This document shows, piece by piece, positions 1,481 to 61,217 of a stretch of DNA of 64,000 nucleotides (positions are counted from its first letter, which is position 1; every line of letters starts with the position of its first letter). Location of the stretch: positions 5,456,001 through 5,520,000 of the forward strand of contig NC_135820.1 in NCBI RefSeq assembly GCF_964213995.1, written 5' to 3'. The notes below the pieces were generated by a model. That model worked only from the letters and a program-made list of their open reading frames with translations, did not search any database and had not been told where the DNA came from. This stretch comes from Mustelus asterias (Eukaryota). A program made the position numbers and the translations under genes.

Positions 1481-1681
1481 TCTATCGAAGGCTCTGACGA
1501 AGGATCATATAGACTCGGAACGTTGGCTCTATTCTCTCCTCATAGATGCTGTCAGACCTGCTGAGAATTTACAGCATTTTTCTGTTTTTGATCCCTACTT
1601 CTACATTCCATTTGCCTTCTTAATCATTTGCATATTAAGAAACATACTAACATGCTGGGGTGAGGATATTCCAGGATGTAC

Positions 1682-1945
1682 CTGGTGAGTCCAGCCGGTA
1701 CTCCCTCACACTGACACCGTGCTCATTCTGTGCCATACACAAGATCAGATTTTCAGATCCAGTTGGGTGAGTCAGTCTCAGGGAACTCTCCAGCAAGTGG
1801 GGTGCAATCTCTGAAATGTTTCTGATGATGTTTCTCCCACCGAGGTTCCATGTGATGTTTGCTGCGGGATTGGCTTTGACACGGCAGATACAGTGAACAT
1901 TCTTCAAACTGGTGCAGTTCAGATCTGATACTATTGTGGGTCTAT
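1682..1945 (-). CDS. Gene A C2-set exon 3
   Basis: 264 nt open to a possible donor CCAG|GTACAT. If unspliced it reads on GTSWNILTPAC to a TAG at 1647-1649. Confidence 0.8.
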
Positions 1946-4900
1946 CTATAGAGAAAAAAAAAGAGAGGGTTGAATTTAAGAGCCTTTCACTCATGCAGTT
2001 ATATTTTATAAATCTATCTGACTAAGGCCAGCAAGGTGGCACAGCGGTTAGCACTGCTGCCTCACAGCGCCAGAAACCCAGGTTCAATTCCGGCCCTGCC
2101 TGTCTGTCTGTGCGGAATCTGCACATTTCTCCCCGTGTCTGTGTGGGTATCCTCCAAGTGCTCCAGTTTCCTCCCACACTCCAAGGATGTGTGGGTTAGG
2201 TGGATTGGCCATGCTCAATTGCCATTTAGTGTTCGGGGGATTAGAAGGGTGAAAATATGGGGGTTATAGGGATGGGTGGGATAGTTGTCAGTGCAGACTT
2301 GATGGGCCCAATGGCCTCCTTCTGCACTGTAGGGATCCTATGATTCTATGAACTTATGCTAACGACCAACCAACTGTAATGAAAGGGTTGTCACTGACAA
2401 TATTTTACCCTTTTAATTAAAAACACTAATCAAAGATAAATTAATGAGGGGGTTGCATGGAGGGGTGAGAGAGACTCTGAGGGTGGTGAGGGCACTGTGA
2501 CAAAAAATCAATACATTAAAATCAAATTAAAACCTCCACCCCAGGGGTGATGATGCACCCAGCCCTAACGGTGCCAACTGGTCACAGAAACAATCATTTA
2601 TATATTGACAGGGGCATAACTAAACATCACTGCCGGAATGTTATGACCTCACTCGGGCGAGCGGGTAAAATCCCGCCCGAGGTCAATGGAGAATTCCATT
2701 CTGCGAGCTTCGCCCACCCCGATTCCGGGACCGGCAGGGTGGGAAAATTCCAGCCCACAAATCACTCCAGAGGCATATTAATCAACAGAAGTTAAGACCA
2801 ATCACATCAGGAGATTTCTTTTAGACAAACACAAACAGGGTAAGGGCCTGATTTTAAGCGGTATCTCAAAGGAGGAGAGTAGCTCAAGAGAATGTCAAGG
2901 ATTGGGGAATTTAAAACATTCGCGCCCAAGGAGCCGGCAAAGTCCTCGCCGGAAATGATCTCGTCGTCAAAGTCTGGGGTGTACAAGAGACCCAGAGGTC
3001 AGGGAGGGTGGAGACTCAGAGGTTTCTGGAGCTGTGGGAGGTTATAGAGATACGGAGGGAAGAGTTCATGGAGAGATTTAAAATCGAGACAGTTATTTCT
3101 AATCAAAAGATAAGACTTTGCTGGACTGGGCACCCCATGAGTTTAACATGAATCAATCACATTAAACCGGTTAATGGCTTAACAGAGTGGCCATTTTCCT
3201 AATCTGTAATAAATCAGTAAGACAGTTGTAAGTTTACAATGAGCAGTGAGATAAACTGTCCTGGAGGTGATGGACTATCGCTGGGATACAGATTCTGAAT
3301 AATCCCAGACTCGCTCCGGGAATCTGTCAGTTCTGAGCAACACCTCAGCAGCATTCAATCAGGTTACTCTCTCGAACATCAGGGCCCAGCCAGGGGAATC
3401 TCAAAAAGCCTCATGTGTTAACTGCAGGAATCGGCTGAGTTCCCACACAATCCCACCCCTCCGGGAACAAATTGCTGCCTCTGTACTTGCCTCACATCCC
3501 ATCATTTGGCTGACACTCAATCTGAAATACATTTCCAAGAACCGGGTTGGGTTATTCCATCAGTTGGTCCACTTTCTCCAATTTCACTGACCTTTCTGGG
3601 AATATTCCTGACACTGGCCCCTGTGGTAATTGTGTGTTTACATTGGGGAACAACACACCCGTTACAATTCATGGGAGTGACATTATTGATGTCCCTGTGT
3701 GTATCTGAAGGGTCCCACTCATCACTTACACTGCACGGAGATGTGTGTGGAACTCCTGGCGGTGCCCAGATTATTTGCAGCCTCGCACCAATATTCCCCT
3801 TCATCTTCAGAACTCACATTGTGAATGAAGAGCTTCAGCTCCGCGGCGCGAGAGTTGCTGATCTCTACCCCACGTCGACTCAATGTTAAATTGACTGGGG
3901 GTATCCCCGAAGCTTTGCAACACAATAAGAATGAACTTCCTTCCACTGATACTATAGAGGAATTGAAGATTGGTTTGCAAGGCGCACCTGAAACACACAG
4001 GTTCGTTGGTGCTATAAGAAAATGAAGATTAAAATTTTAAAAAACAAGAAAATAAGAATATCTTCTAGATATGGTGTTTAATTTGTTAAATAAACTGGAA
4101 AAATATTGGTGTCTAATTGCTTAAGCATAAGTTAAACTTAAACATCTATTCAATCGGCATCTTCACTTCAGTTCGTTGTCTAGTTACCTGACTGAACTTC
4201 TAATCAATAAACCTTTCAACCCAGAGACCATTCTTCCCAGATTGAGGATTCTTAACTTTCCCAATGGCATTGAACTCAGTTTTAGCATCAAGACCAACAC
4301 CCCAGCAGCTCCACACAGAAACTAATGATCATTTGATTTTCTGACTTACACGATATCAGCGATTAATCAAGCTGTGGGATAATAGTGGTGGCACAGTGGT
4401 TAGCACTGCTACCTCACAGCACCAGGGACACTGGTTCGATTCCTGGCTTGGGTCACTGTCTGTGCGGAGTTCGCACGTTCTCCCCATGTCTGCATGGGTT
4501 TCCTCTGGGTGCTCTGGTTTCCTCCCACAGTCTGAAAGACATGCTGGTTAGGGGCATTGGCCATGCTAAATTCTCCCTTAGTATACCCGAACAGGTGTCG
4601 GAGTGTGGCGACTAGGGGATTTTCACACTAACCTCATTGCAGTGTTAATGTCAGCCCACTTGTGACACAAATAAATTAACTCAAACGTAAGGAACAAACA
4701 TCCATTAGCCACACATGTCACTCCATGTGTCAGCGACAATGTTAAATAATATAATGGACCAGTAATGGCTGAGAGTTTGATTGATAGACAATGGGGAGAA
4801 GTGACCTCCAGCCCTTACAAATAGATCATGGCGGCTCAGAATTTTAGTGGCGGCTGATATCATAATACTTCATCTCCACCTAGTCATCGAGGTTTACAGT

Positions 4901-7900
4901 ATGGAAGCAGGCCCTTTGGCCCAACATGCCCATGCTGCCCAGTTTTTAACCACTAAGCTATTCCCAATTGCTCACATTTGGCCCATGTTCCTCTCTACCC
5001 ATCTTACCCAAGTAACTGTCCAAATGCTTTTTAAAAGAATAAATTGTACCAGTCTCTACTACTACCTCTGGCAGCTTGTTCCAGACACTCACCACCCTCT
5101 GTGTGAAAAAATTGCCGCACTGGACACTTTTGTAACTCTCCCCATCGCCTTAAAACTTTGCCCTCTAGTTTTAGACTCCCCTGCCTTTGGGAAAAGATGT
5201 TGACTATCTAACGCATCTATGCCCCTCATTATTTTCTAGACTTTCATAAAATCACACCTAAGCCTCTTTCGCTCCAGGGAAAAAAGTCCCAGTCTATCCA
5301 GCTCTCCTTATACCTCAAACTATCAAGTCCCGATAGCATCATGGTTAATCTTTTCTGCACTCTTTCTCATTTAATAGTATTTTTTCCATAATAAAGTGAC
5401 CAGAACTGTAAACAGTATTCCAAGTGTGGCCTTACCAATGCCTTGTACAACTTCAACAAGACGTCACAACTTAAAAATGAAATCTCGCAATCTCAGTTTT
5501 ACAAATGTTCAGTTTTCCAGGCGAGACTCAGACAGATTCTGATATGATTTACCGTCAGGGTGATTGAATAAATCCCAGCGCAGATACCGACACTGCACAT
5601 CCAGTCTCAGAGATTCTTGGACAGTTGTCTGCCCATCGCCACTGATGAGTTTACAGGTCAGGGATTCCCCATGCTGATCCAGTGATGGGGTGAAGGAGAA
5701 AGTTGATGAAACCGTCCAGGAATCCTCCAAACTGTTCCTGGTGTGTTGTGAAGTTAGAGCGCCCGGCAGAAAGGGAGATTCTTCTTCAATCCACTCCAGA
5801 TTAAACTCCGGAACTGAACAACTCTGGGTGAGTGAGCAGGTGAACCGGGCTGGTTTTCCAGCTATCAACTGTCCCAGGACTGAGATATGCAGTTTCTCTG
5901 TCAGGAACAGAGGAAATTCGAGTTACCCAAGATTGCAATTTACAAAACCGAATAAGAGGAGAGCAAAGTCCGAGAAATAATCACATTAATAAATCGATTA
6001 TCTGATTATTGTCTCTGTTATCGGCTGCAGGTTAAAATCCCTAAGTTCCCCCGAGTCAATCGGAACACACTTGTGTTCATTCTGTTAATAATCTGCCCCC
6101 TTCTTTCTGAAGAATTGACCAATGACCTATGAATGTATCACATTATTTGTCAGAAGTGTCTCTGGATGCCCTGGTCCTGACCAGACAGGGTAATAATTAA
6201 CGGGGAAACTGGATAAAATAGAAAGACAACCTTCTCCCTTTGAACCCAATTTGTTAAACACCAGCCTGTTTACTCGACCTGGGAATTATATTTCCCCTCA
6301 TTCAGTTTCTTGTCCTTGCCTTGGAAACATTTTATTAACGTTGAATTCTGTTTTCTGAGGGAGGTTTGGACATTATCAAAGGAGTTTTCACTCCTTTGGG
6401 GAAATGTACTGAAGAGAGGTGGCAGTTTTTCAAGGAATGTCTGTCTAGAGTTCTACAGGACAATGTTCCGAGCAGACAGAGAGGTGTTGGTCGGTTAAAG
6501 GAACCGTGGTGCACGAAAGCTGTGCAGGACCGAGTCGAGAAGAAAGGGAAAGCGTACAAAAGGCGCAGAGAGCTTGGCGAAGATAGGGATTTAGAAGAGT
6601 ATACGGCTTGTAGGAAGGGACTAAAGAAGGAAATTAGGACAGCCAGAAGGAGTCACGAGAAGGCCCTGGCAGGTAGGATTAAGGAGAACCATAAGGCGTT
6701 CTATAAATATGTGAAGAGTAAAAGGATGAGACATGACGGAATAGGACCTATAAAAGGTGAAGGCGGGAAAGTCTGTACGGAACCAGTAGAAATGGCAGAG
6801 GTGCTCAATGAGTATTTTGCCTCGGATTTCACAGAGGAGAAGGACCTGGGTGGATGTACTGCGGGCATGCGGTGGACTGAAAGGATTGAGTATGTGGACT
6901 TTAAGAAAGAGGTTGTGCTGGAATCTTTGAAAGGCATCAAGATAGATAAGTCGCCGGGTCCGGATGGGATGTACCCCAGGTTACTGTGGGAGGCAAGGGA
7001 AGAGATTGCAGAGCCTCTGGCGATGATCTTTGCATCGTCGATGGAGATGGGAGAGGTGCCAGAGGATTGGAGGATTGCGGATGTGGTTACTATTTTCAAG
7101 AAGGGGAATAGGGATAGCCCAGGTAATTACCGACCGGTGAGTCTAACCTCAGTGGTTGGTAAACTGATGGAGAAGATCCTGAGGGACAGGATATATGAGC
7201 ATTTAGAGAGGTTTAGTATGCCCAAGAATACTCAGCATGGCTTTGTCAAAGGCAGATCGTGCCTTACGAGCCTGGTGGAATTCTTCGAAAATGTGACTAA
7301 ACACATTGACGAAGGGAAAGCGGTAGATGTGGTTTATATGGATTTTAGCAAGGCGTTCGATAAGGTCCCCCATGCAAGGCTTCTCAAAAAAGTGAGAGGG
7401 CATGGGATCCAGGGGCCTGCTGCCCGGTGGATCCAGAACTGGCTTGCCCAAAGGAGGCAGAGAGTGGGTATAGATTTGTCTTTTTCGAAATGGAGGTCGG
7501 TCACCAGCGGTGTGCCCCAGGGATCTGTTCTGGGACCCTTGCTGTTTGTCATTTTCATAAATGACCTCAATGAGGAAGCAAAGGGATGGGTTGGTAAGTT
7601 TGCCGATGACACGAAGGTTGGTGGGGTTGTGGACAATCTGGAGGGATGTCAGAAGTTACAGAGGGACATAGATAGGATGCAAGACTGGGCGGACAAGTGG
7701 CAGATGGACTTCAACCCAGATAAATGCGTCGTGGTCCATTTTGGTAGGACAAATGGGATGAAGGAGTACAATATACAGGGAAAGACTCTTTGTACGGTAG
7801 ACGATCAGAAGGACTTGGGGTCCGGGTCCATAGGACTCTGAAATCGGCCCCGCAGGTGGAGGAGGTGGTTAAGAAGGCGTATGGTGTGCTGGCCTTTATC

Positions 7901-10016
7901 AATCGAGGGATTGAGTTTCGGAGTCCAGGGATAATGATGCAGCTATATAAGACCCTAATCAGACCCCACTTGGAGTACTGTGCTCAGTTCTGGTCGCCTC
8001 ACTATAGGAAGGATGTGGAAAAGATTGAAAGGGTGCAGAGGAGATTTACAAGGATGTTGCCTGGATTGAGTGGCATGCCTTATGAGGATAGGCTGAGGGA
8101 GCTCAGTCTTTTCTCCTTGGAGAGACGAAGGATGAGAGGAGACCTAATAGAGGTGTATAAGATGTTGAGAGGCATAGATCGGGTGGACTCAGGGTGGAAA
8201 TGTCTGCTACGAGAGGACACAGGTTTAAGGTGCTGGGGGATAGGTACTGGGGAGATGTTAGGGTTAAGTTTTTCACACAGAGGGTGGTGGGCGAGTGGAA
8301 TCGGCTGCCGTCAGTGGTGGTGGAGGCGAACTCAGTGGGGTCTTTTAAGAGACCCCTGGATGAGTACATGGAGCTTAATAGGATGGAGGGTTATAGGTAG
8401 GTCTAGAAGGTAGGGATGTGTTCGGCACAACTTGTGGGCCGAAGGGCCTGTTTGTGCTGTAGTTTTTCTATGTTTCTATGTTTCCACACTGGATAATAAC
8501 ATTTTCTAAGGCATAAACATTCAGTGGGATCTCCCAGATAACCAGTCTTCAAAGCAAAGTTCTGACCTTAAGTTTTTTTGATGTTGTAAATTAATGGTTC
8601 CACTTTGCATTCGATGGTAACACTTTTGCGCACATTCAAAACCAATGAGATCTCCAAGGTAACATGCCTTTATCATAAAGTTAGGGCTCAGGTTGTGGGA
8701 CTCTCCTTGCCGGCTGAAAATTGGGTTCAAATCCCACTGCCGAGAATACATTAGGGCAGTGACACTTTATTAGTGATGAATCTGTTTGGGACGACCTCAG
8801 CTCATGAAAGGCGCTATTTAAATGCAGGACGCACTCCTGCCTTCATTAAACGGAGGGGTATTAACGACGGGATTCCTCCCATGTACTGACCGTGTGTCCC
8901 TCCATCCATTCAGAGTGTGAATCTACACTCAATGTTCAGTCTCGATTAAGGATTGTTTTTTGTTGTTGTTCTGTATAGTTCATTTTCCCAAATTACATTT
9001 AGTAAGTGGACAGCGGGGGGAATTTCTGCGGGTTTGGGATGTCAGTAACCTGTTTGAGTTCAGGTCAATAACATCACACACACCTGGATATGGTACACTG
9101 TACCACCTTGGAGTCGAAGCCTTTAACATTCGCCAATAGTAACAGCACACAATAACACCCTGCTCACTGAGAAAGCGGAATATAAACTCCTCACAAATGA
9201 ATGGAAAACCTACCCAGAATTGAGAGAGAGACAGGAATTTTCTGAAGGTGATTTTCGGCACTATTCCAGGGACTGGTCATCTTCACTCTGATGTAATAAT
9301 CCCCTTCATCTCCGCTCCTGATGTCCTTTATCAATAAGGAGAACTGTTTCTTTGCCACCTTTCCCTTCAGCTCAATTCTCCCTCTATATCCCGGGGCTGC
9401 TCTCCCCGGCTCTGCGGAATCATAGATAACAGAAACCCCAGGAGTACGAGGATCAGAACCCCCCTTCAGCCACAGAATCCGTGGATTGCTGTATGTGTCG
9501 GGATAATCAAATGTACACGGGATTTCTGCACACGAGCCTCTCACAGCCGTCACATTCCAGGGAATCCTCACAGACCATCGGGAACTATGGAGAACTGATA
9601 AACAAATATCCATTTCATTAATAATGAGCTGGCCAATGATAAACCGAATAAAATAATCCCAAAATTACAGCTCGCCACTGTTACATTTCCCTTGAAGCAT
9701 CCACTGTTATATATACATCGCCAACAATTACAACTCTGCAAGTTCCCATTGAAACGATTCAAATTTTAGTAAATATTTCATTCAAACACATTGAAGTCAG
9801 AATTCTGTCAATTCAGTAAAATACAGAATAGAATTTCCAATATGAGATGCATTACAGCCTCAACATTAAATACAAATTTTTAATTAACCATTCTTATCTC
9901 TGGACTTCATGAATATTTTATTTTATTCACCAGACGGATACACCCTCAATCGGAAATTATTAAAAGAATCTTGTACCTTGGATAAACATCAGGATGAGGG
10001 GAACACACTTCATCAT
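1682..10016 (-). CDS. Gene A: Siglec-like ectodomain (leader-V-C2-C2-C2), open reading frame, 3' part not identified in the window
   Basis: Exons 9977-10016, 9214-9594, 5592-5897, 3730-3987 and 1682-1945 are all phase 1 and open, and are a near-identical inverted copy of gene B exons 1-5. No TM exon was found in 1-1680. Confidence 0.75.
2028..2350 (+). mobile_element. HE1-type V-SINE (inverted paralog 51168-51487)
   Basis: A/B boxes, V-domain and TTCTATG tail. Confidence 0.88.
2631..2757. mobile_element. Possible MITE-like element (paralog about 50772-50897, related pieces about 52357-52482 and 52793-52932)
   Basis: GC-rich insert absent from the paralogous intron near 17700, bounded by imperfect inverted termini GCCGG(A/G)ATTTT...AAAATTCCAGC. 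Confidence 0.4.
3730..3987 (-). CDS. Gene A C2-set exon 2
   Basis: 258 nt open, TTTCAG| and |GTAAGT. Confidence 0.85.
4385..4676 (+). mobile_element. V-SINE variant with a different 3' tail (inverted paralog 48858-49150)
   Basis: Same head and V-domain, but ends GGCGACTAGGGGATTTTCAC...AATAAA. Confidence 0.8.
4881..5470 (-). mobile_element. Old CR1/HER1 3' fragment duplicated with the gene (also + at about 17020-17448, 33090-33517, 46805-47392)
   Basis: LYKTLVRPHLEYC...QRVVSVWN motif at the same position downstream of C2 exon 1 in four copies. Confidence 0.85.
5592..5897 (-). CDS. Gene A C2-set exon 1
   Basis: 306 nt open. The donor is T|GTCGGT, weaker than GTAGGT in gene B. Confidence 0.82.
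6395..8482 (+). mobile_element. 5'-truncated CR1/HER1 LINE, specific to gene A intron 2
   Basis: RT motifs (KSPGPDG, YRPVSLTS, DFSKAFD, GVPQGSVLGP, FADD), a frameshift near 7820 and a (TTCTATG)n tail. The paralogous site near 41700 is empty. Confidence 0.95.
9214..9594 (-). CDS. Gene A V-set exon V1 (open, E-strand Cys replaced by Phe)
   Basis: 381 nt with intact splice sites. YYIRV is kept, but KQFSLL replaces KQCSLL. Confidence 0.85.
9977..10016 (-). CDS. Gene A leader exon L1
   Basis: MMKCVPLILMFIQ + G|GTACAA, same as L6. Confidence 0.78.
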
Positions 10017-40977: not shown

Positions 40978-43658
40978 TTGCTGCAATGTTCCAGTGAAGC
41001 TCAATGTAAACTGGAGGAACAGCATCTCATCTTCCGGCTCGGCACTTTACAACCTTCCAGTCTCAACATCGAATTCAACAACTTCAGATGATTTGCTCGA
41101 CCCCTCCTCGACCCCTTTGTTATCATTCCATTTTATTTAATTTTTTACTGTTCTCTAATTTTTATTTCTTTATTGTCTTTCTTCATTTTTATCTCCCCCA
41201 CCTTTCCTTCCCTCTACTTCATCCCCCATTTCTCCCTCCCGCTTACCCTTTTCTACATTCTACCTCTGCCCCATTCCACCCCGCTCCCCACTCAAAATCT
41301 CCATCTGTCACAGTTTACAGCTTTTCCGCCGCTTGGCCATTCACACCCTTTCTGCTCTCTGGGAATAGCTATTAGCAGTATTTCCCCCTGGTTTCTATGG
41401 CTATGACTCATCTTTCATTCCCTCCCCCTGCAGTATAAATATCTCCCACTTTCTATGCCTTTTAGCTTTGACGAAGGGTCATCTAGACTCGAAACGTCAC
41501 CTCTTTTCTCTTCTTACAGATTCTGCCAGACATGCTGAGATTTTTCAGCTTTTCTCTTTTGCTTAAACTCCAGTCTGTTTCCTCTACCTGGGAGCTATAT
41601 TTACCCTCATTCAGTTTCTTGTCCTTGCCTTGGGAACATTTTATTAACGTTGAATTCTATTTTCTGAGGGAGGTTTGGATATTATCCATGGATCTTTCAC
41701 TCCACACTGGATAATGACATTTTCTCGGACATTAACATTCAGTGGGATCTTGCAGTCTTCAAAGCAAAGTTCTGACATTACGTTTTTTTGATATTGCGAA
41801 TTAATGTTTCCACTTTGTATTCAATGGCAACACTTTCCGGCTCTGTATCACGCCCATTCACAGCCAATGGGATCTCCAAAGTAACTTGCCTTGAACAAAA
41901 GTTGGGGCTCAGGTTGTGGGACTCTCCGGCTGAAAAGTGGGTTCAAATCCCACTGCCAAGAGTGTGAGTACATTAGGGCAGTGAAACTTTATTAGTGATG
42001 AATCTGTTTGGAACGATCTCAGCTCATGAAAGGCGCTATTTAAATACAGGACGCACTCCTGCCTTCATTAAACGGAGGGGTATTAACGACGGGATTCCTC
42101 CCATGTACTGACCGTGTGCACCTTCCTGTCCATTCAGAGTGTGAACCTTCAGTCAATGTTCAGTCTCTATTAAGGGTTGTTTTTTGTTGTTGTTCTGGAC
42201 AGTTCCAAACCTTTTCCCAAGTTGTACTTAGTAACTGGACAGCAGCGGGGATTCCTGCGGGTTTGCAATGTCAGTAACCTGTTTGAGTTCAGGTCAATAA
42301 CATCACACACACCTGGATATGGTTCACTGTACCAACCCTGGAGCTGAAGCCTTTAACATTCGCCAACAGTAACAGCACACAATGACACCCTGCTCACTGA
42401 GAAAGCGGAATATAAACTCCTCACAAATGAATGGAAAACCTACCCAGAATTGAGAGAGAGACAGGAATTTTCTGAAGGTGATCTTCTGCTCTATCCCAGG
42501 GAGTGGTCATCTTCACTCTGATGTAATAATCCCCTCCATCCCCCCTCTTGAAGTCCTTTATCAATAAGGAGAACTGTTTCTCTGTCACCTTTCCCTTCAG
42601 CTCAATTCTCCCTGCTGCTCTCTCTAGCTCTGCGGAATCAGAGATAACAGAAACCACAGGGGTACGAGGATCAGAACCCCCCTTCAGCCACAGAATCCAC
42701 GGATTGCTGTATGTGTCGGGATAATCAAATACGCACGGGATTTCGGCACACGAGCCGTCACATTCCAGGGAATCCTCACAGACCATCGGGAACTATGGAG
42801 AACTGATAAACAAATATCCATTTCATAAATAATGAGCTGGCCAATGATAAACCGAATAAAATAATCCCAAAATTATAGCTCAGCACTGTTACATTTCCCT
42901 TGAAGCATCCACTGTTATATATACATCGCCAACAATTACAACTCTGCAAGTTCCCATTGAAACTATTCAAATTCTAGGAAATATTTCATTCAAACACATT
43001 GAAGTCAGAATTCTGTCAATTCAGTAAAATACCGAATAGAATTTCCAATATGAGATGCATCACAGCCTCAACATTAAATACAAATTTTTAGTTAACCATT
43101 CCTATCTCTGGAGGTCATGAATATTTTATTTCATTCACTAGACGGATACACCCTCAATCGGAAATTATTAAAAGAATCTTGTACCTTGGATAAACATCAG
43201 GATGAGGGGAACACACTTCATCATAATCATCACGACAGAAGGTTCACCATTGTAGGAAGGAACTGATTTCAGATTAAAACCTGGTGCTGAATTCCAGTCG
43301 CTGCTAATCGATTGCTGATCGATTACAATGGAATCGGAGCTGCTGGGCACCCCCTCATTGGGAATCGATTTAACCTCGCACAGTTTGGCAATCTCACTCC
43401 CTCTCAGTGACCGCCACTAGCTGTCTCAGACAGCGGCAGCATGGAGCTGGGCAGTAATGTGTTACTCACACAGTTAGTGGGTGCAATGGTGCCAAACTAG
43501 CGACAAAGGCTCACCAACTGACAATGAACCCTTCATTGTGATCGGCTGCACAGACAACAGGACAGGAACAAACATTTTAGACTGGAAAACCAAAAATAGC
43601 CCAGCACACAAGCTGTTCTGGCTAAAAATCCTGAAGGTGCGAAGGCCACTTATTTGCA

Positions 43659-44384: not shown

Positions 44385-44424
44385 ATGATGAAGTGTGTTC
44401 CCCTCATCCTGATGTTTATCCAAG
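44385..44424 (+). CDS. Gene B leader exon L6 (MMKCVPLILMFIQ)
   Basis: ATG, hydrophobic 13-mer, donor CAAG|GTACAA, phase 1. An in-frame upstream ATG exists at 44379. Confidence 0.8.
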
Positions 44425-47400
44425 GTACAAGATTCTTTTAATAATTTCCGATTGAGGGTGTATCCGTCTCGTGAATAAAATAAAATATTCATGACCTCCA
44501 GAGATAAGAATGGTTAATTAAAAATTTGTATTTAATGTTGAGGTTGTAATGCAACTCATATTGGAAATTCTATTCTGTATTTTACTGAATTGACAGAATT
44601 CTGACTTCAATGTGTTTGAATGAAATATTTCCTAGAATTTGAATAGTTTCAATGGGAACTTGCAGAGTTGTAATTGTTGGCGATGTATATATAACAGTGG
44701 ATGCTTCAAGGGAAATGTAACAGTGCTGAGCTGTAATTTTGGGATTATTTTATTCGGTTTATCATTGGCTAGCTCATTATTAATGAAATGGATATTTGTT
44801 TATCAGTTCTCCATAGTTCCCGATGGTCTGTGAGGATTCCCTGGAATGTGACGGCTGTGAGAGGCTCGTGTGCAGAAATCCCGTGCACATTTGATTATCC
44901 CGACACATACAGCAATCCGCGGATTCTGTGGCTGAAGGGGGGTTCTGATCCTCATACCCGTGGGGTTTCTGTTATCTATGATTCCGCAGAGCCAGGGAGA
45001 GCAACCCCGGGATATAGAGGGAGAATTGAGCTGAAGGGAAATGTGACAGGGAAACAGTGCTCCTTATTGATAAAGGACTTCAGGAGCGGAGATGAAGGGG
45101 ATTATTACATCAGAGTGAAGATGACCAGCCCCTGGAATAGTGCCGAAAATCACCTTCAGAAAATTCCTGTCTCTCTCTCAATTCTGGGTAGGTTTTCCAT
45201 TCATTTATGAGGAGTTTATATTCCGCTTTCTCAGTGAATAGGGTGTTATTGTGTGCTGTTACTATTGGCGAATGTTAAAGGCTTCGACTCCAAGGTGGTA
45301 CAGTGAACCATATCCAGATGTGTTTGATGTTATTGACCTGAACTCAAACAGGTTACTGACATCCCAAACCCGCAGAAATTCCCCCCGCTGTCCACTTGCT
45401 AATTGTAATTTGGGAAATGGTTTGGAACTGCCCAGAACAAGAACAAAAAACGACCCTTAATAGAGACTGAACATTGAGTGTAGATTCACACTCTGAGTGG
45501 ATGGAGGGACACATGGTCAGTACATGGGAGGAATTCCGTCGTTAATACCCCTCCGTTTAATGAAGGCAGGAGTGTGTCCTGCATTTCAATAGCGCCTTTC
45601 ATGAGCTGAGATCGTTCCAAACAGATTCATCACTAATAAAGTCTCACTGCCCTAACGTACTCACGCAGTGGGATTCGAACCCACTTTTCAGCCGGGGAGT
45701 CCCACAACCTGAGCCCTAACTTTTGTTCAAGGCAAGTTACCTTGGAGATCCCATTGGTTTTGAATGGGCACGAAAGTGTTACCATCAAATGCAAATTGGA
45801 AACATTAATTCACAATATCAAAAAAACTTAATGTCAGAACTTTGCTTTGAAGATTGGTTATCTGGGAGACCCCACTGAATGTTAATGTCCTAGAAAATCC
45901 AGTGTGGAGTGAAAAATCCTTTGATAATGTCCAAACCACCCTCAGAAAACAGAATTCAACGTTAATAAAATGTTTCCAAGGCAAGGACAAGAAACTGAAT
46001 GAGGGTAAATATAGTTCCCAGGTCGAATAAACAGACTGGTGTTTAACAAATTGTGTTCAACGGGGGAAGGTTGTCTTTCTATTTGATCCAGTTTTCCCCG
46101 TTAATTATCACCCTGTCTGGTCAGGACCAGGGCATCCAGAGACAATTCTGACAAATAATGTGGTACATTCATTGGTCATTGGTCAATTCTTCAGAAAGAA
46201 GGGGGCAGCTTATTAACAGAATGAACTCGGGGAATTTAGGGATTTTTATCTGTAGCCAATAACAGAGAATAATCAGATAATCGATTTATTAATGTGATTA
46301 TTTCTTTGACTTTCCTCTCCTCTCATTCGGTTTTGTAAGTTGGAATCTTGGGTAACTCGAATTTCCTCTGTTCCCGACAGAGAAACTGCGGATCTCAGTC
46401 CCGGGACAGTTGATAGCTGGAAAACCAGCCCGGTTCACCTGCTCACTCACCCAGAGTTGTTCAGTTCCGGAGTTTAAACTGGAGTGGATTGGAGAAGAAT
46501 CTCCCATTCTGCCGGGAGCTCTAACTTCACAACACACCAGGAACAGTTTGGAGGATTCCTGGACGGTTTCATCAACTTTCTCCTTCACCCCATCACTGGA
46601 TCAGCATGGGGAATCCCTGACCTGTAAACTCATCAGTGGCGATGGGCAGACAACTGTCCAAGAATCTCTGAGACTGGATGTGCAGTGTAGGTATCTGCGC
46701 TGGGATTTATTCAATCACCCTGACGGTAAATCAGAATCTGTCTGAGTCTCGCCTGGAAAACTGAACATTTGTAAAACTGAGATTGCGAGATTTCATTTTT
46801 AAGTTGTGACGTCTTGTTGAAGTTGTACAAGACATTGGTCAGGCCACACTTGGAATACTGTTTATAGTTCTGGTCACTCTATTATGGAAAAGATATTATT
46901 AAACTAGAAAGAGTGCAGAAAAGATTAACCAGGATGCTACCGGGACTTGATAGTTTGAGTTATAAGGAGAGGCTGGAGAGACTGGGACTTTTTTCCCTGG
47001 AGGGTAGGAGGTTGAGGGGTGATTTTGTGGAAGTCTATAAAATAATGAGGGGCATAGATGAGTTAGATAGTCAACATCTTTTCCCAAAGGCAGGGGAGTC
47101 TAAAACTAGAGGGCAAAGTTTTAAGGTGAGAGGGGAGAGTTACAAAAATGTTCAGAGGGGCAATATTTTCACACAGAGGGTGGTGAGTGTCTGGAACAAT
47201 CTGCCAGAGGTAGTAGCAGAGGCGGGTACAATTTTGTCTTTTAAACAGCATTTGGACAGTTACATGGGTAAGATGGGTAGAGAGGGATATGGGCCAAATG
47301 TGGGCAATTGGGAGTAGCTTAGTGGTTAAAAACTGGGCAGCATGGGCAAGTTGGGCCAAAGGGCTTGTTTCCATGCTGTAAACCTCGATGACTAGGTGGA

Positions 47401-50400
47401 GATGAAGTATTATGGTACCAGCCGCCACTAAAATACTGAGCAGCCATGATCTATTTGTAAGGGCTGGAGGTCATTTCTCCCCATTGTCTATCAATCAAAC
47501 TCTCAGCCATTACTGGTCCATTATATTATTTAACATTGTCGCTGACACATGGAGTGATAGAACATAGAACATAGAAAGGCTACAGCACAAATAGGCCCTT
47601 TGGCCCACAAGTTGCGCTGAACATGTCCCTACCTACTAGGCTTACCTATAACCCTCTATCTTACTAACTTCCATGAACTTATCCAAAAGTCTCTTAAAAG
47701 ACCCGATCGAATCCGCCTCCACCGCCACTACTGGCAGCCGATTCCACACACCCACCACCCTCTGAGTGAAAAACTTACCCCTAGTATCTCCTCTGTACCT
47801 ACTCCCCAGCACCCTAAACCTGTGACCTCTTGTGGCAACCATTCCAGCCCTGGGTAAAAGCCTCTGAGAATCCACTCTATCAATACCTCTCAACATCTTA
47901 TACACCTCTATCAGGTCACCACTCATCCTTCGCCTCTCGAAGGAGAAAAGACCGAGCTCTCTCAACCTATCCTCATAAGGCATGCCATCTAGTCCAGGCA
48001 ACATCCATGAAAATCTTCTCTGCACCCTTTCTATGGCTTCCACATCCTTTCTGTAATGAGGTGACCAGAACTGGGCACAGTACTCCAGGTGGGGTCTGAC
48101 CAGGGTCCTATACAGCTGCAGCATTATCTCCCGATTTCTAAACTCAATTCCTCTATTGATGAAGGCCAGTATTCCATACGCCCTCTTAATTACAGCCTCT
48201 ACCTGCGACGCTGCTTTGAGCGTCCTATGAACCCAGACCCCAAGATCCTTCTGATCTTCCATACTGCCAAGGGTCTTACCCTTAATATTATATTCTTTCA
48301 TCCTATTCGACCTGCCAAAATAAACCACCACACACTTATCTGGGTTGAAGTCCATCTGCCACTTCTCCGTCCAGTCTTGCATCTTATCTATGTCTCGTTG
48401 CAACTGCTGACATCCCTCTACACTATCCACAACCCCACCAACCTTTGTGTCATCAGCAAACTTGCCAACCCATCCTTCCACTTCCTCATCCAGGTCATTT
48501 ATAAAAATCACCAAGAGCAAGGATCCCAGAACAGATCCCTGGGGCACTCCACTGGTGACCGACCTCCATGCTGAAAAAGACCCATCTACAACCACTCTTT
48601 GCCTTCTGTGGGCAAGCCAGTTCTGAATCCACAAAGCAATGTCCCCTTGTATCCCATGCCCCTTCACTTTCTCAATAAGCCTTGCATGGGGCACCTTATC
48701 AAACGCATTGCTGAAATCCATATAAACTACATCTACTGCTCTTCCCTCATCTCTGTGTCTAGTTACATCTTCAAAAAATTCAATTCGGCTCGTAAGGCAT
48801 GATCTGCCTTAGAGTGATATGTGTGGCTAATAGATGTTTGTTTCTTAAGTTTCAGTTAATTTATTTGTGTCACAAGTAGGCTGACATTAACACTGCAATG
48901 AAGTTACTGTGAAAATCCCCTAGTCCCCACACTCCGGCACCTGTTCGGGTATACTGAGGGAGAATTTAGCATGGCCAATACACCTAACCAGCACGTCTTT
49001 CAGACTGTGGGAGGAAACCAGAGCACCCGGAGGAAACTCATGCAGACATGGGGAGAACGTGCGAACTCCGCACAGACAGTGACCCAAGCCAGGAATCGAA
49101 CCAGTGTCCCTGGTGCTGTGAGGTAGCAGTGCTAACCACTGTGCCACCACTATTATCCCACAGCTTGATTAATCGCTGATATCATGTAAGTCAGAAAATC
49201 AAATGATCATTAGTTTCTGTGTGGAGCTGCTGGGCTGTTGGTCTTGATGCTAAAACTGAGTTCAACGCCATTGGGAAAGTTAAGAATCCTCAATCAGGGA
49301 AGAATGGTCTCTGGGTTGAAAGGTTTATTGATTAGAAGTTCAGTCAGGTTGTTAGACAACTAACTGAAGTGAAGATGTCGAATGAATAGATGTTTAAGTT
49401 TAACTTATGCTTAAGCAATTAGACACCAATATTTTTCCAGTTTATTTAACAAATTAAACACCATATCTAGTAGAAATTCTTATTTTCTTGTGTTTTTAAA
49501 TTTTAATCTTTATTTTCTTATAGCACCAATGAACTTGTGTGTTTCAGATGCGCTTTGCAAACCAATCCTCAACTCCTCTATAGTATCAGTGGAAGGAAGT
49601 TCATTCTTATTGTATTGCAAAGCTTCAGGGATCCCCCCAGTCAATTTAACATTGAGTCGACGTGGTGTAGAGATCAGCAACTCTCCCATTGTGGAGCTGA
49701 AGCTCTTCATTCACAATGTCAGTTCTGAAGATGAAGGGGAATATTGGTGCGAGGCTGCAAATAATCTGGGCACCGCCAGGAGTTCCACACACATCTCCGT
49801 GCAGTGTAAGTGATGAGTGGGACCCTTCAGATACACACAGGGACATCAATAATGTCACTCCCATGAATTGTAACGGGTGTGTTGTTCCCCAATGTAAACA
49901 CACAATTACCACAGGGGTCAGTGTCAGGGATATTCCCAGAAAGGTCAGGGAAATTGGAGAAAGTGAACCAACTGATGGAATAACCCAACCCGGTTCTTGG
50001 AAATGTATTTCAGATTGAGTGTCAGCCAAATGGTGGGATGTGAGGCAAGTACAGAGGCAGCAATTTGTTCCCGGGGGGTGGGATTGTGTGGGAACTCGGC
50101 TGATTCCTGCAGTTAACACATGAGGCTTTTTGAGATTCCCCCGGCTGGGCCCTGATGTTCGAGAGAGTAACCTGATTGAATGCTGCTGAGGTGTTGCTCA
50201 GAACTGACAGATTCCCGGAGCGAGTCTGGGATTATTTAGAATCTGTATCCCAGCGATAGTCCATCATCTCCAGGACAGTTTATCTCACTGCTCATTGTAA
50301 ACTTACAACTGTCTTACTGATTTATTACAGATTAGGAAAATGACCACTCTGTTAAGCCATTAACCGGTTTAATGTGATTGATTCATGTTAAACTCATGGG

Positions 50401-53400
50401 GTGCCCAGTCCAGCAAAGTCTTATTTTTAGATTAGAAATAACTGTCTCGATTTTAAATCTCTCCATGAACTCTTCACTCATATCTGTATCACCTCCCACA
50501 GCTCCAGAAACCTCTGAGTCTCCACCCTCCCCGACCTCTGGGTCTCTTGTACACCCCAGACTTTAACGACTGGATCATTGCTGGCTGGGACTTCATCCAC
50601 TTGGGCGTGAATGTTTTAAATTCCCCATCCGAGACATTCTCTTGAGCTACTCTCCTCCTTTGAGATACCGCTTAAAATCAGGCCCTTACCCTGTTTGTGT
50701 TTGTCTAAAAGAAATCTCCTGATGTGATTGGTCTAAACTTCTGTTGGTTAATATGCCTCTGGAGTGATTTGTGGGCTGGAATTTTCCCACCCTGCCGGCC
50801 CCGGAATCGGGGTGGGCGAGGCTCGCAGAATGGAATTCTCCATTGGCCTCGGGCGGGATTTTACCCGCTCGCCCGAGCGAGGTCATAAAATCCCGGCAGT
50901 GATGTTTAGTTATGCCCCTGTCAATATATAAATGATTGTTTCTGTGACCAATTGGCACCGTTAGGGCTGGGTGCATCATCACCCCTGGGGTGGAGGTTTT
51001 AATGTTTTGCTTTTTTGTCACAGTGCCCTCACCACCCTCAGGGTCTCTCTCACCCCTTCATGCAACCCCCTCATTAATTTATCTTTGATTATTGTTTTTA
51101 ATTAAAAGGGTAAAATATTGTCAGTGACAGCCCTTTCATTACAGTTGGTTGGTTGTAAGCATAAGTTCATAGAATCATAGGATCCATACAGTGCAGAAGG
51201 AGGCCATTGGGCCCATCAAGGCTGCACTGACAACTATCCCATCCACCTATCCCCCACATATTTACCCTTCTAATCCCCCAAACACTAAGGGGCAATTGAG
51301 CATGGCCAATCCACCAAACCCACACATCTTTGGTGTGTGGGAGGAAACTGGAGCACTCGGAGGAAACCCACACAGACACGGGGAGAACGTGCAGAGTCCA
51401 CACAGGCAGTGACCCAGGGCCGGATGGAACCTGGGTTCCTGGCACTGTGAGGCAGCAATGTTGATAATCACTGTGCCACCATGCTGGCCTTAGTTGGATA
51501 GATTTATAAAATAAAACTGCATGAGTGAAAGGTTCTTAAATTCAACCCTCTTTTTTTTCCTGTATAGATAGACCCACAATAGTATCAGATCTGAACTGCA
51601 CCAGTTTGAAGAATGAGGTTCACTGTATCTGCCGTGTCAAAGCCAATCCTGCAGCAAACATCACATGGAACCTCGGTGGGAACATTTCGGTGGCAAACAT
51701 CACATGGAACATCACTGGGAACATTTCAGAGATTGCACCCCACTTGCTGGAGAGTTCCCTGAGACTGACTCACCCAACTGGATCTGAAAATCTGATCTTG
51801 TGTATGGCACAGAATGAGCACGGTGTCAGTGTGAGGGAATACCAGCTGGACTCACCAGAATATCCTGAACGTGAGTGAATACAGACTGCTCCCTCACTGA
51901 GACAACTGTTGAATAGCCATGGTGGAAATGCAAAATAATCTTTGACATTATACTGAGCCCATTGTCAATTTGAACAGACTCAGTGTCCATTCCCTGACTG
52001 AGTCAGCGTCTCACTGAAACTCTGTTCAGTGTATTCTCTGATTTTCTTGAATGCGTTTATGGATGCTTTTGTCAAAATCAGGATTAATTCACGTAAAAGC
52101 ATCTCACTCATAGAATCCTTACAGTGTAGTGCACTAAGGGGCAATTTAGCGTGGCCTAACCCACACAACTTTGGAGTGTGGGAGGAAACTGGAGCACCCG
52201 AAGGAAACCCACACAGACACAGGGAGAATGTGCAAACGTCACACATTAACCCAAGCCGGGAATTTAACCCGGGTCCCTGGTGCTGTGAGGCAACAGTGCT
52301 AACCACTGTGCTACCGTGCCATCCCAGTACTAATTTTTGAATATCGAATCAGTTAGACCGAAATATTCCTGTTCCGCCAACTGTGGGAATCGTACCGGGT
52401 ATGGGGTAGATCATGCAAAGGTCCATTGACATCGGGTGGGATTTTCCAGTTTTGGGGTGAGTGAGGCTGGAAAATCCTACCCTTAAAGTAGAATGTGGAT
52501 ATGTACTCCGTACCCGGGTTCTACCTGGAAATAGAATCCAAATGACAATGTTAATCTCATCTTGTGGAGTTAGGTATCACCCTGGTTGTGTATATGTTGC
52601 TCTGTATGTATGGTTCTGTGTAATTGTGTTCGGGACTGATGTTACGGTTTTTCAAAGCAGTTTGGTTGCATTGAGAGATTCGTGACTTGCTGGGCAGACT
52701 TAGAGATGTAAATGACATTGTACCTGCACTTTCCAATTCGCTTTAACATTATTTGAGTTCAACGTGGGTTTAATTATTTGCGTTCAACTCAAAGGGTGTG
52801 ATTTTCCAGCTGTGCTCACCCTCAGACTGGAAAATCCTGTCCGAGGTCATGGTCTGCCTCTCCCCACCATGGTTGCATGGTCTGCCTCTCCCCACCCGCT
52901 GTGATTCCTATAGGACGGGAAAATTCTGCCCAAAATGTTAATTTCAGCTTAACACGAGACACAAAGGCCAGAAGATCTGTGTGAAATCCAGTTCCGATTC
53001 TTATAAAGAGTTTAAATGCTGCCCTATCTTTATTAAAGTGAAGGATTCCCAATGCATTGTTAAATCACTTCAGGAGAGTTGTATAAAAATTGTAAAATCC
53101 TGAGTTTTAGGATTGGACAGCTATATAATATAACAATAACGATATATTCATGTTAACATACTTCTTTAATTCATTCATGGGATGTGGGCATCGCTGGCTG
53201 GGCCAGCATTTATTGCCCGTCCCTAATTGCCCCATTTCAGGGGACATTTGAGAGTTAACCACATTGTTGAGGCTCTGGAGTCACATGTCGGCCAGACCAC
53301 GAAAGGACGACAGATTTCCTTCCCTAAAGGGCCATGAGTGAAGTAGATGTATTTTTACAACAATCAGCATGGTCATCATTTAATTCCAGAATCCTATTGT

Positions 53401-56400
53401 TGTGGTGGGATTTGAACCCGGGTCCCCAGAACATTACCCTGGATTACTAGTCCAGGGAAAATACCAGTATACCGCTGCCTCTTCATTAGATGTAACAGTG
53501 CTGCATGCAGATATACATTGTATCTTATTGTCATCTTGTAATTTAGAACTATAATGCCCAACAAGACTTTTTTTTATATTTTAGGAACTTTTCCCTGGTG
53601 GATCGTCATCCTGATAGTTACGGCTGCAGCTATTATTCTGATTCTCATCATGGTGAAGGTGCAGAGGTATGTGTGTGCTTCCTAAATACTGAAACTCACA
53701 TGGTCATCACAAATTTGAAAGGCTTTCAGGGGGCTGAGAGGAGGGTTGTCGGGATTTCTGCAGATGAGGAACGATTGTTCAAAGTGGTACGCCCGGAGAT
53801 TCCCTGAGAAGTGTTGTGAAGGGGGAGAGTGAATGGAGGCCAGGTCTTCATGTGGGGAAGATAGGGAAATGGCAAATTCTCCAAGTCCCCTGGTCAGTCT
53901 ATCACTGACTTCTGCCGGCAATCATGTTCTAGACTTTTGGTTTGGTCGGTGCCTTTGTGTTATGTACTTAAGTGGTTGAAGGATTGCTTTAGGAGCAGGT
54001 CGCATGATTTGATGGTGATGTCATTAGGGTGTTTCAGAGGCTCCTGCTTTTAGAACATAGAACATAGAACAGTACAGCACAGAACAGGTCCTTCGGCCCA
54101 CGATGTTGTGCCGAGCTTTATCTGAAACCAAGATCAAGCTATCCCACTCCCTATCATCCTGGTGTGCTCCATGTGCCTATCCAATAACCACTTAAATGTT
54201 CCTAAAGTGTCTGACTCCACTATCACTGCAGGCAGTCCATTCCACACCCCAACCACTCTCTGCGTAGAGAACCTATCGCTAATATCCTTCCTATATCTCC
54301 CACCACGAACCCTATAGTTATGCCCCCTTGTAATAGCTCCATCCACCCGAGGAAATAGTCTTTGAACGTTCACTCTATCTATCCCCTTCATCATTTTATA
54401 AACCTCTATTAAGTCTCCCCTCAGCCTCCTCCGCTCCAGAGAGAACAGCCCTAGCTCCCTCAACCTTTCCTCATAAGACCTACCCTCCAAACCAGGCAGC
54501 AACCTGGTAAATCTCCTCTGCACTCTTTCCAGCGCTTCCACATCCTTCTTATAGTGAGGTGACCCGAACTGCACACAATATTCCAAATGTTGGAATTTCA
54601 GTTTGTCCTCTGTGCAGGCAAGAGCTCCTTCAATAAATCTGTTGTTGTTACTTTGAATCTACATGTGCAAGCCACATCTTTTTTTCTTTTTGTGTAAAAC
54701 TCAATAATTAGGACATTACACTTTCCCTGCAGTGTTGTAAAATAAAATATGGGTTTAGACTTCAGAATTAAGTATAGAAACAGAATATCCCCCTCACACT
54801 GTACCGCAGTGGGGCATTGTGAGAGATGCTGTCTCTCCTAACAGATGTGTAACCCAAAACACCCTCAATTAGCAGAAACAGATGCTAAGGTATTAGCGCA
54901 AGAGGAGTGAGGTTCTATCACTATCATCCCAAACAGGCAACCCACCACAATAGAATAATTGATCAGTTGTCACCAAGCTGTTTTATGGGGACCAGGACTG
55001 CATTAAAGGACTTCCACATTTGAAACAATTCCCATAAAATTCAAGAAGAATTGAGATGTGCACTTGTAATGCCAAGGCACACAAGGCTACGGACCGAGTG
55101 CTGGGAAATGGGATCAGATCTTTGACTGGCGCAGGTGTGATGGGCCGAAGGGCATTTTTCTATGCTGTACACCTCTATGATGCTGACAATCTGGTTACAC
55201 TTTCAAAATTAAATAATGACCTGGGCAAGTTCGTTCTGGCTGGTTTGGACTGGAATAGTCAAACAACAGATTTGCATTACTGTAGTAACCTTATTCTTCC
55301 CCGAGGGTTTAACGGCGGGCGGGGCGGGGGGGGTGGCGCGGAGGCAGAATAGAACATAGTGAGGAGGCAAATTTGAAACAGCGGATGGTGTTGGAGACAA
55401 ATTTCAAAGCAGCAGATAGTGTAAGAAGCAGTGACAACCCAGTGCAAACAGTAAGAAGTCTCACAAAACCAGGTTAAAGTCCAACAGGTTTATTTCATAT
55501 CACGAGCTTTTGGAGCGCTGCCCCTTCATCAGGGGCGGCACGGTAGCACAGTGGTTAGCACTGCTGCTTCACAGCTCCAGGGATCTGGGTTCGATTCCCG
55601 GCTTGGGTCACTGTCTGTGTGGAGTTTGCACATTCTTCCTGTGTCTGCGTGGGTTTCCTCCGGGTGCTCCGGTTTCCTCCCACAGTCCAAAGATGTGCGG
55701 GTTAGGTTAATTGGCCATGCTAAATTGCCCCTTAGTGTCCCGGGATGCATAGGTTAGAGGGATTAGCGAGTAAATATATGGGGATAGAGCCTGGGTGGGA
55801 TTGTGGTCGGTGCAGACTCGATGGGCCGAATGGCCTCTTTCTGCACTGTAGGGTTTCTATGATTGATCTATGATTGAGGTGAGTCATCTTGTGAGACTTC
55901 TTACTGTGCCTACCCGAGTTCGATGCCGGCATCTCCACATCAATCCAGCGCAAAGGCATTTGTTTATGGAGGATCTTACCACGGGAGCATTTACAAGTTC
56001 AAATCAGACCTGTTTGACCCACATTACAAACCCACATTCATTGATCCATCAAATCCTGGATTGAGACTTCAACACCATCAGGCTCTGAGATAGAGACAGT
56101 ACACTCTCTGTGGGATGATCAAGGGATTTAAAGAGAAGTATTTGTCTGACGCATAGCGGGAATTTTCTTATTAACATCCACAAGCTTGTTGTCAACATTT
56201 TTTTCTAACTCTGCTGACGTTATTTAGTCTCCACGAGTCACATCACAAAATTACATCTGAATATCTAAACTAACAATAGCAATGGACTGGTCAATTTATC
56301 AAAAATAAAAAAACTGGGACCAATCGAATTGAAGTAACTCCAGAACTTCGGACAAGTCATGAATGCAAAGATATTAAACAATAAATCATAGGAGATGTTT

Positions 56401-61100: not shown

Positions 61101-61217
61101 AATCGAGGTGGCCTGATTCTCATCAACAGAGATCAGCAATAGCTGAAGACAACATGTTTAATGGCGTAGAACAGCAAGTTCATATTGTCCAAAGTGCTTT
61201 GAGAATGGTTATCTTTC

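Follow-up and report, generated by a model that had tools for sequence, protein, structure and literature searches.

Activating members of paired receptors have been defined by a short tail and a charged transmembrane (TM) residue (PMC13358205). In the closest described systems, SIGLEC11/SIGLEC16 and SIGLEC5/SIGLEC14, near-identical ectodomains are kept alike by conversion, and an ITIM tail in one partner is set against a short tail with a charged TM in the other (PMC5701461, PMC6288428). SIGLEC11 and SIGLEC16 lie head to head and are alike up to a point near the 3' end of exon 8, and SIGLEC16 is reported to have arisen before the split of Old World monkeys and apes (PMC5701461). Activating Siglecs are described as using DAP12 (PMC6288428, PMC13233462). 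An Arg at the outer TM end is described as a feature of FcRγ-coupled receptors (PMC2413239, PMC6557307, PMC4536121). The NxxR-type FcRγ receptors (LILRA2, PIR-A, NKp46, GPVI, OSCAR, FcαR, and XFL TM1 of Xenopus) join this Arg to a short tail and an acidic inner TM end (PMC6557307, PMC2413239).

In the KLRC, KLRA, KLRB, KLRI, and PIR pairs of rodents and primates, the ligand-binding parts are homogenised within a lineage while the opposing signalling parts persist, a pattern termed merohomogenisation (PMC3210942). Fish Siglec-15 is reported as an activating Siglec with a charged TM residue (PMC7226832); this residue is a Lys, and the gene is conserved and has no described inhibitory twin. The passages on teleosts in the same source state that fish genomes lack CD33-related Siglecs (PMC7226832), and the passages of the whale-shark genome paper that touch on the family hold a single general mention of Siglecs (PMC8455134). 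Paired Siglecs with conversion have so far been described from primates. The listings returned by searches of the open-access literature contain no description of a paired Siglec in sharks.

Here we describe a candidate pair in the shark Mustelus asterias. The window, the whole stretch of 64,000 nt that was analysed (G000:C20:5456001-5520000), contains two full Siglec-like ectodomains, gene A on the minus strand and gene B on the plus strand. Gene A, predicted to splice from a GTACAT donor to an Arg-bearing TM exon 5.7 kb away, is probably the activating partner of gene B.

Results

Genes A and B lie head to head. As in paired receptors, they are linked, with 34 kb between their start codons, and closely alike, with protein identity of 94-95% in each domain and DNA identity of 94-98% (95.6-97.7% in exons, 94.1-95.4% in introns). 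Since exons and introns are both this similar, whole blocks appear to have been replaced; the pattern points to gene conversion or re-duplication as the mechanism. The crude pN/pS between A and B is about 0.7 (32/964 versus 14/296), and selection is not evident from it.

The stretch between the two genes (11694-43614) holds partial copies in both orientations, namely four signal+V, four Ig-2, and two Ig-3 copies. The window as a whole has six signal+V, six Ig-2, and four Ig-3 copies, two last-Ig exons, and one TM/tail set. All four V exons besides those of A and B carry a stop or frameshift. The copies form dense inverted and direct partial duplications of ectodomain exons, interspersed with repeats, and may have arisen as side products of whatever maintains the likeness of the pair. 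An assembly artefact is an unlikely source, as the long copies are 3-16% divergent. Elsewhere on the contig, at least 20 more V-set exons with 28-40% identity cluster near its start (G000:C20:119837-893286).

The five exons of gene A in the window are all open. They are the 40-nt, phase-1 signal-peptide exon (9977-10016), identical to that of B, the V-set exon (9214-9594), Ig exon 2 with the donor GTCGGT (5592-5897), Ig exon 3 (3730-4011), and the last Ig exon with its phase-1 end (1682-1945), all on the minus strand. The RefSeq model of A uses an in-frame Ig-2 donor 39 nt beyond GTCGGT, and intron 2 of A contains a 2-kb repeat. The ectodomain matches V-set and Ig_CD22 in Pfam, and in the PDB its domains, taken singly, match sialoadhesin and Siglec-5 best (E about 1e-11), with scores that do not separate the subfamilies. 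Gene A has the architecture of a Siglec, with an N-terminal V-set domain, C2-type Ig domains, and a single TM whose join is predicted. It also has the essential F-strand V-set Arg (9287-9289), which aligns with sialoadhesin residue 97 in the PDB match. This Arg is present in A and B and missing from four of the ten aligned rows, both catsharks among them, so the ligand of A and B need not be sialic acid. At 9341-9343, A has a Phe where sialoadhesin and nine of the ten aligned shark rows, B included, have a Cys; we take this to be the second cysteine of the V-set disulfide. The same Phe-for-Cys change is seen in the broken V copy at 42435-42808. The intra-sheet disulfide of the V-set domain is described as a feature of the Siglec family (PMC9875244), and A departs from it. 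Since this structural feature fails and binding is predicted from sequence, we file gene A as Siglec-like, with sialic-acid binding putative.

Gene B comprises ectodomain exons at 44385-44424, 44807-45187, 46381-46686, 49524-49805, and 51568-51870, a TM exon with an uncharged core (53585-53666), and two tail exons (57620-57707 and 60936-61101), all on the plus strand. The tail carries the ITIM-type motifs VTYAAV and, in the second exon, VLYAAL followed by a distal tyrosine motif, in agreement with the initial annotation of B as ITIM-bearing. ITIMs with an uncharged TM are the features of the inhibitory side of a paired receptor. The TM of B scores 80-87 to ITIM-bearing catshark and white-shark TMs and 31-34 to Arg anchors. 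The last Ig exon of B lacks GTACAT and is extended to a GTGAGT 12 nt further on (51858-51876). This splice is predicted and unsettled, because RefSeq XP_078093182.1 joins B at another junction with a longer linker. Within the same exon, a short in-frame internal duplication (51670-51730) adds N-glycosylation-type motifs relative to A. The block with the last ITIM exon of B (60792-61189) is identical at 392 of 398 nt to part of gene C (G000:C20:5804842-5805239, L023:4842-5239). Gene C is a distant paralogue of B, 290 kb away, with TM and first-tail-exon regions 67-82% alike. This looks like conversion of a signalling exon between the inhibitory genes B and C, the reverse of the usual pattern.

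The junction strings of A and B were both found where the initial annotation had placed them. It had set the end of A/B homology exactly at the last Ig exon; similarity does end near there, and runs a few bases further, to 10 nt into the A intron by local alignment (BLAST 1672 to 51867), or to 19 nt if the 11-nt gap of that annotation is accepted. Past the junction the two genes are unrelated, as proposed: the 5,681-nt intron of A and the 1,714-nt intron of B share three short matches (185, 66, and 22 nt), which we read as repeats. The GTACAT donor of A (1676-1681, minus strand) had been called weak, a description that does not hold. Of the 11 positions of the U1 consensus, the donor agrees with 7, a value inside the span seen in both genes (5-9 of 11 in the seven donors of B, 5-7 in the other four of A). 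G|GTACAT closes the homologous exon in three of five paralogous exons elsewhere on the contig; one of the other two has TTACAT and one is apparently cut by a repeat. Eight of nine TM-bearing models pass straight from the last Ig domain into the TM, and B alone has an extension. Given this shared site and the direct Ig-TM join, the comparison indicates that the GTACAT junction of A is ancestral and the junction of B derived, with the donor lost. We also considered the junction as the repair scar of a fresh truncated duplicate and rejected this, as the donor is ancestral and a conserved TM exon lies downstream. Intronic read-through of A (1647-1681) is open for 11 codons up to a TAG (1649-1647), and includes a second phase-1 GT donor after 1652.

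The A intron, of which 1-1681 lies in the window, leads to the Arg-bearing TM/tail exon at G000:C20:5452000-5451888 (L001:6000-5888, minus strand), 4,000 nt beyond the window edge. Inspection of this strand to the left of the window for a phase-1 TM exon with a Lys or Arg had been proposed; such an exon, with an Arg, begins 5,681 nt past the donor. The minus strand of the 210 kb left of the window was scanned for exons in phase 1 that contain a hydrophobic 19-mer. The A exon is the best and nearest of ten candidates (211.7 kb, left minus strand), is single-copy, and lies in unique DNA. As a control, the same scan over 12.2 kb behind B returned the TM of B alone. At a stricter cut-off the A exon was the sole match in the 210 kb, against one match in 370 kb of control strands. 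In the encoded TM (core FPIRVAV) the Arg lies close to the outer face, some 10 residues beyond the last Ig domain. After it come 17 uncharged residues and an Asp, then a short tail and a stop. The predicted tail of about nine residues has no ITIM. With the splice as predicted, A shows the features of the activating side of a paired receptor, namely a TM residue with a positive charge and a short tail that lacks ITIMs.

RefSeq XP_078093181.1 (P0003) joins the same last-Ig and TM exons and ends at the same stop. It omits the signal and V exons of A and takes its 5' part from broken upstream copies; this chimeric model, named 'myelin-associated glycoprotein-like', is corrected by the present analysis. 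The six exons of A, in contrast to the four broken sister V exons, contain no stop or frameshift. A B-like TM and ITIM tail was sought for A: the TM/tail exons of B have no DNA match in 120 kb to the left, and its TM and first tail exon have no protein match in 210 kb to the left of the window. The TM of A is unrelated to that of B (local score 31). Unique sequence within 30 kb holds 17 phase-2 acceptors, none of which resembled a signalling exon. About 18.7 kb left of the window lies a fructose-bisphosphate aldolase gene, tail to tail with A (L002:241-396 (+), ~L002:1240-1330). We read the TM exon as terminal because no acceptor leads to a signalling-like exon, the aldolase gene closes the space, and basking-shark sequence is still alike beyond the possible donor of the TM exon. 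Searched alone, the A anchor gave no useful match in PDB, Pfam, or the protein atlas.

A homologous anchor directly follows the last Ig domain in the basking-shark Siglec-like protein XP_078392811.1 (P0024). Sixteen of 36 residues are identical, the Arg included. PIRV and MNSHR are invariant, while most residues of the hydrophobic core differ. The alignment score of 89 is reached in none of 10,000 shuffles (48 at most). Among 74 TM regions scored, the basking-shark anchor (92 to A) is the one match from another species, and the next best scores 44; two region searches found no further species with an A-type anchor. On the strand of A, 18.4 kb beyond the left window edge and adjoining the aldolase gene, lies DNA that matches the modelled tail of the basking-shark protein (13 of 21 residues, E 8e-4). 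This position and strand suggest that the basking-shark anchored gene and A are the same locus. The longer basking-shark tail was not accepted as a real tail, since the match is apparently non-coding and has an internal stop. The anchor appears to predate the split of the houndshark and basking-shark (carcharhiniform-lamniform) lineages and to have persisted in both. The two orders separated roughly 150-200 million years ago.

The ectodomains give a different grouping from the anchors. Identity between A and the basking-shark protein is 49-60%, as against 94-95% between A and B. In trees of three domains, A and B cluster together (support 97-100/98-99), and the basking-shark protein falls among lamniform proteins. 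A clade of A with the basking-shark protein was rejected in all three domains (p-AU 1e-118, 1e-4, and 2e-8), in a test on quick trees with the group named after the first trees were seen. Rows with the domain missing or less than 60% covered were left out (7 of 22 for V, 5 of 22 for Ig-2, 1 of 22 for the last Ig). Ectodomains group by lineage and anchors by type; on these trees, with two species carrying the anchor, the pattern is that of concerted evolution limited to the ectodomain of an activating/inhibitory pair. Near-identical ectodomain twins also occur in the cloudy catshark Scyliorhinus torazame (P0010/P0006, 92-98%), the white shark (P0106/P0162, 91-97%), and the basking shark (P0024/P0045, 95-97%). 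One twin model in each lacks a TM (P0010, P0106, and P0045, the last ending before its TM), so among the four sharks with twins the full activating/inhibitory pair is seen in the Mustelus asterias genome only.

Candidate adaptors were also sought. The genome contains an FcRγ-like TM exon whose best PDB matches are FcRγ. A TM exon that we presume to be CD3ζ-like from its resemblance, and the FcRγ-like one, lie at L042:1501-1587 and L043:1507-1599, on C17 and C275. Complex prediction of the A anchor with two FcRγ-like TM copies gave 0.17 and 0.15 (mark 0.34). A DAP10 family search returned two marginal matches, and the one that was translated is not an adaptor. An ITAM family search gave no match anywhere, its controls included.

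Discussion

The A/B locus resembles the primate Siglec pairs in its head-to-head arrangement, in its opposed TM and tail types, and in a similarity that stops near the last Ig exon. It differs from them in its origin in the shark lineage, and we claim no orthology to CD33-related Siglecs. A and B are separated by 34 kb that include broken copies, and adaptor and ligand are predicted. The A anchor spans two shark orders, compared with the Old World monkey-ape depth of SIGLEC16. Like the NxxR-type receptors, A has an outer TM Arg and a short tail. Unlike them, neither shark has an Asn at the third position ahead of the Arg, where A has Phe and the basking shark Leu. Nor does the TM exon of either shark start with a DYT motif, an Asp six positions ahead of the Arg being present in A and missing from the basking shark, and the ectodomain is of Siglec type. 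The acidic inner TM end is found in A only, as an Asp 18 residues after the Arg, with a Gly in the basking shark. Homogenised ligand-binding parts over persisting signalling parts recall merohomogenisation, in this case for a Siglec-like family of cartilaginous fish. Compared with fish Siglec-15, the predicted activating role is shared; A has an Arg, four Ig domains, and a homogenised partner.

The initial annotation had offered A either as an activating or as a decoy counterpart of B. The Arg TM exon, the ITIM-less tail, and the anchor kept in another shark order favour the former, and the latter loses ground to the ancestral donor and the conserved TM exon downstream. The main rival is another one: the activating locus may be old and real and the present A copy a null or weakened allele, comparable to human SIGLEC16P and SIGLEC14-null. 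The lost V-set Cys, the weaker Ig-2 donor GTCGGT, the repeat insertion and heavy rearrangement beside the promoter, and the pN/pS value are in line with this, and human activating Siglecs are reported to have null alleles often (PMC6288428). We nevertheless consider it unlikely, because the six exons of A are intact while every sister V exon is broken, an in-frame second Ig-2 donor is present, and Phe-like residues occupy the Cys position in other V-set domains (pIgR rows). Moreover, two of the three GTCGGT copies besides that of A are not relevant to function.

A mainly secreted four-Ig decoy, made by read-through to the TAG at 1647, is less likely still, and we regard it as highly improbable. 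The frame is indeed open over its 11 codons, and P0010 of Scyliorhinus torazame and P0106 of white shark, the RefSeq models of the probable counterparts, have no TM. However, gene prediction commonly produces such read-through ends where a distant exon goes unrecognised, the ancestral donor matches the others of A in quality, the conserved TM exon lies downstream, and the first AATAAA comes 2,113 nt past the stop. About equally improbable is a membrane-bound A that does not signal and acts as a surface decoy or adhesion molecule, with the Arg merely marking the membrane edge. The missing NxxR motif and the placement of the Arg, between the last Ig domain some 10 residues away and a run of 17 uncharged residues, would fit such a molecule. 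Against it stand the invariance of PIRV across the two orders, in a hydrophobic core that otherwise mostly differs, and the Ile-Arg TM starts with short tails in Siglec-like P0137 and bamboo-shark P0071. The latter (XP_072409577.1, Chiloscyllium punctatum) has a 15-residue tail, is unrelated to the A anchor (score 24), and is possibly a second activating lineage. Siglec-like paralogues near 15-16 Mb of the contig have an Arg inside the TM in two of three cases and a Gly in the third (L026:9193 = G000:C20:15163193; L030 = G000:C20:15959748).

In the activating reading, A would splice from its ancestral GTACAT to the Arg membrane exon and give a protein with a signal peptide, one V-set domain, three further Ig domains, the Arg TM, and the short tail. 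This protein may reach the surface, where the TM Arg would pair with an acidic TM residue of an ITAM adaptor. FcRγ would be the first choice, slightly ahead of DAP12. The ectodomain block, introns included, would be repeatedly overwritten by the partner between the inverted genes while the anchor persists, and similarity would stop beyond the last Ig exon, since old, unrelated halves follow in the two genes. A and B may then share a ligand to which they respond with opposite signals, and, by analogy with the mammalian pairs, a microbe that engages the inhibitory B may also trigger A.

A wider reading, to which we give a little less than even weight, is that a paired Siglec system evolved in sharks on its own, long before that of primates and independently of it. 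Its shark-specific PIRV Arg anchor, of neither NxxR nor Siglec-15 type, would act through FcRγ and would have been kept since before the carcharhiniform-lamniform split, with the ectodomain overwritten in each lineage. The TM-less twins of cloudy catshark and white shark would then be mis-annotated orthologues of A.

Genes A and B are likely an old on/off immune-receptor pair like human Siglec-11/16. The design is a known one; the anchor is distinct and unusually old, much older than any of the homogenised ectodomains. A and B provide a defined pair for the counter-trap idea and for adaptor choice in cartilaginous fish. A shark pair of the same layout as the primate ones would place the origin or persistence of this design at the base of the jawed vertebrates.
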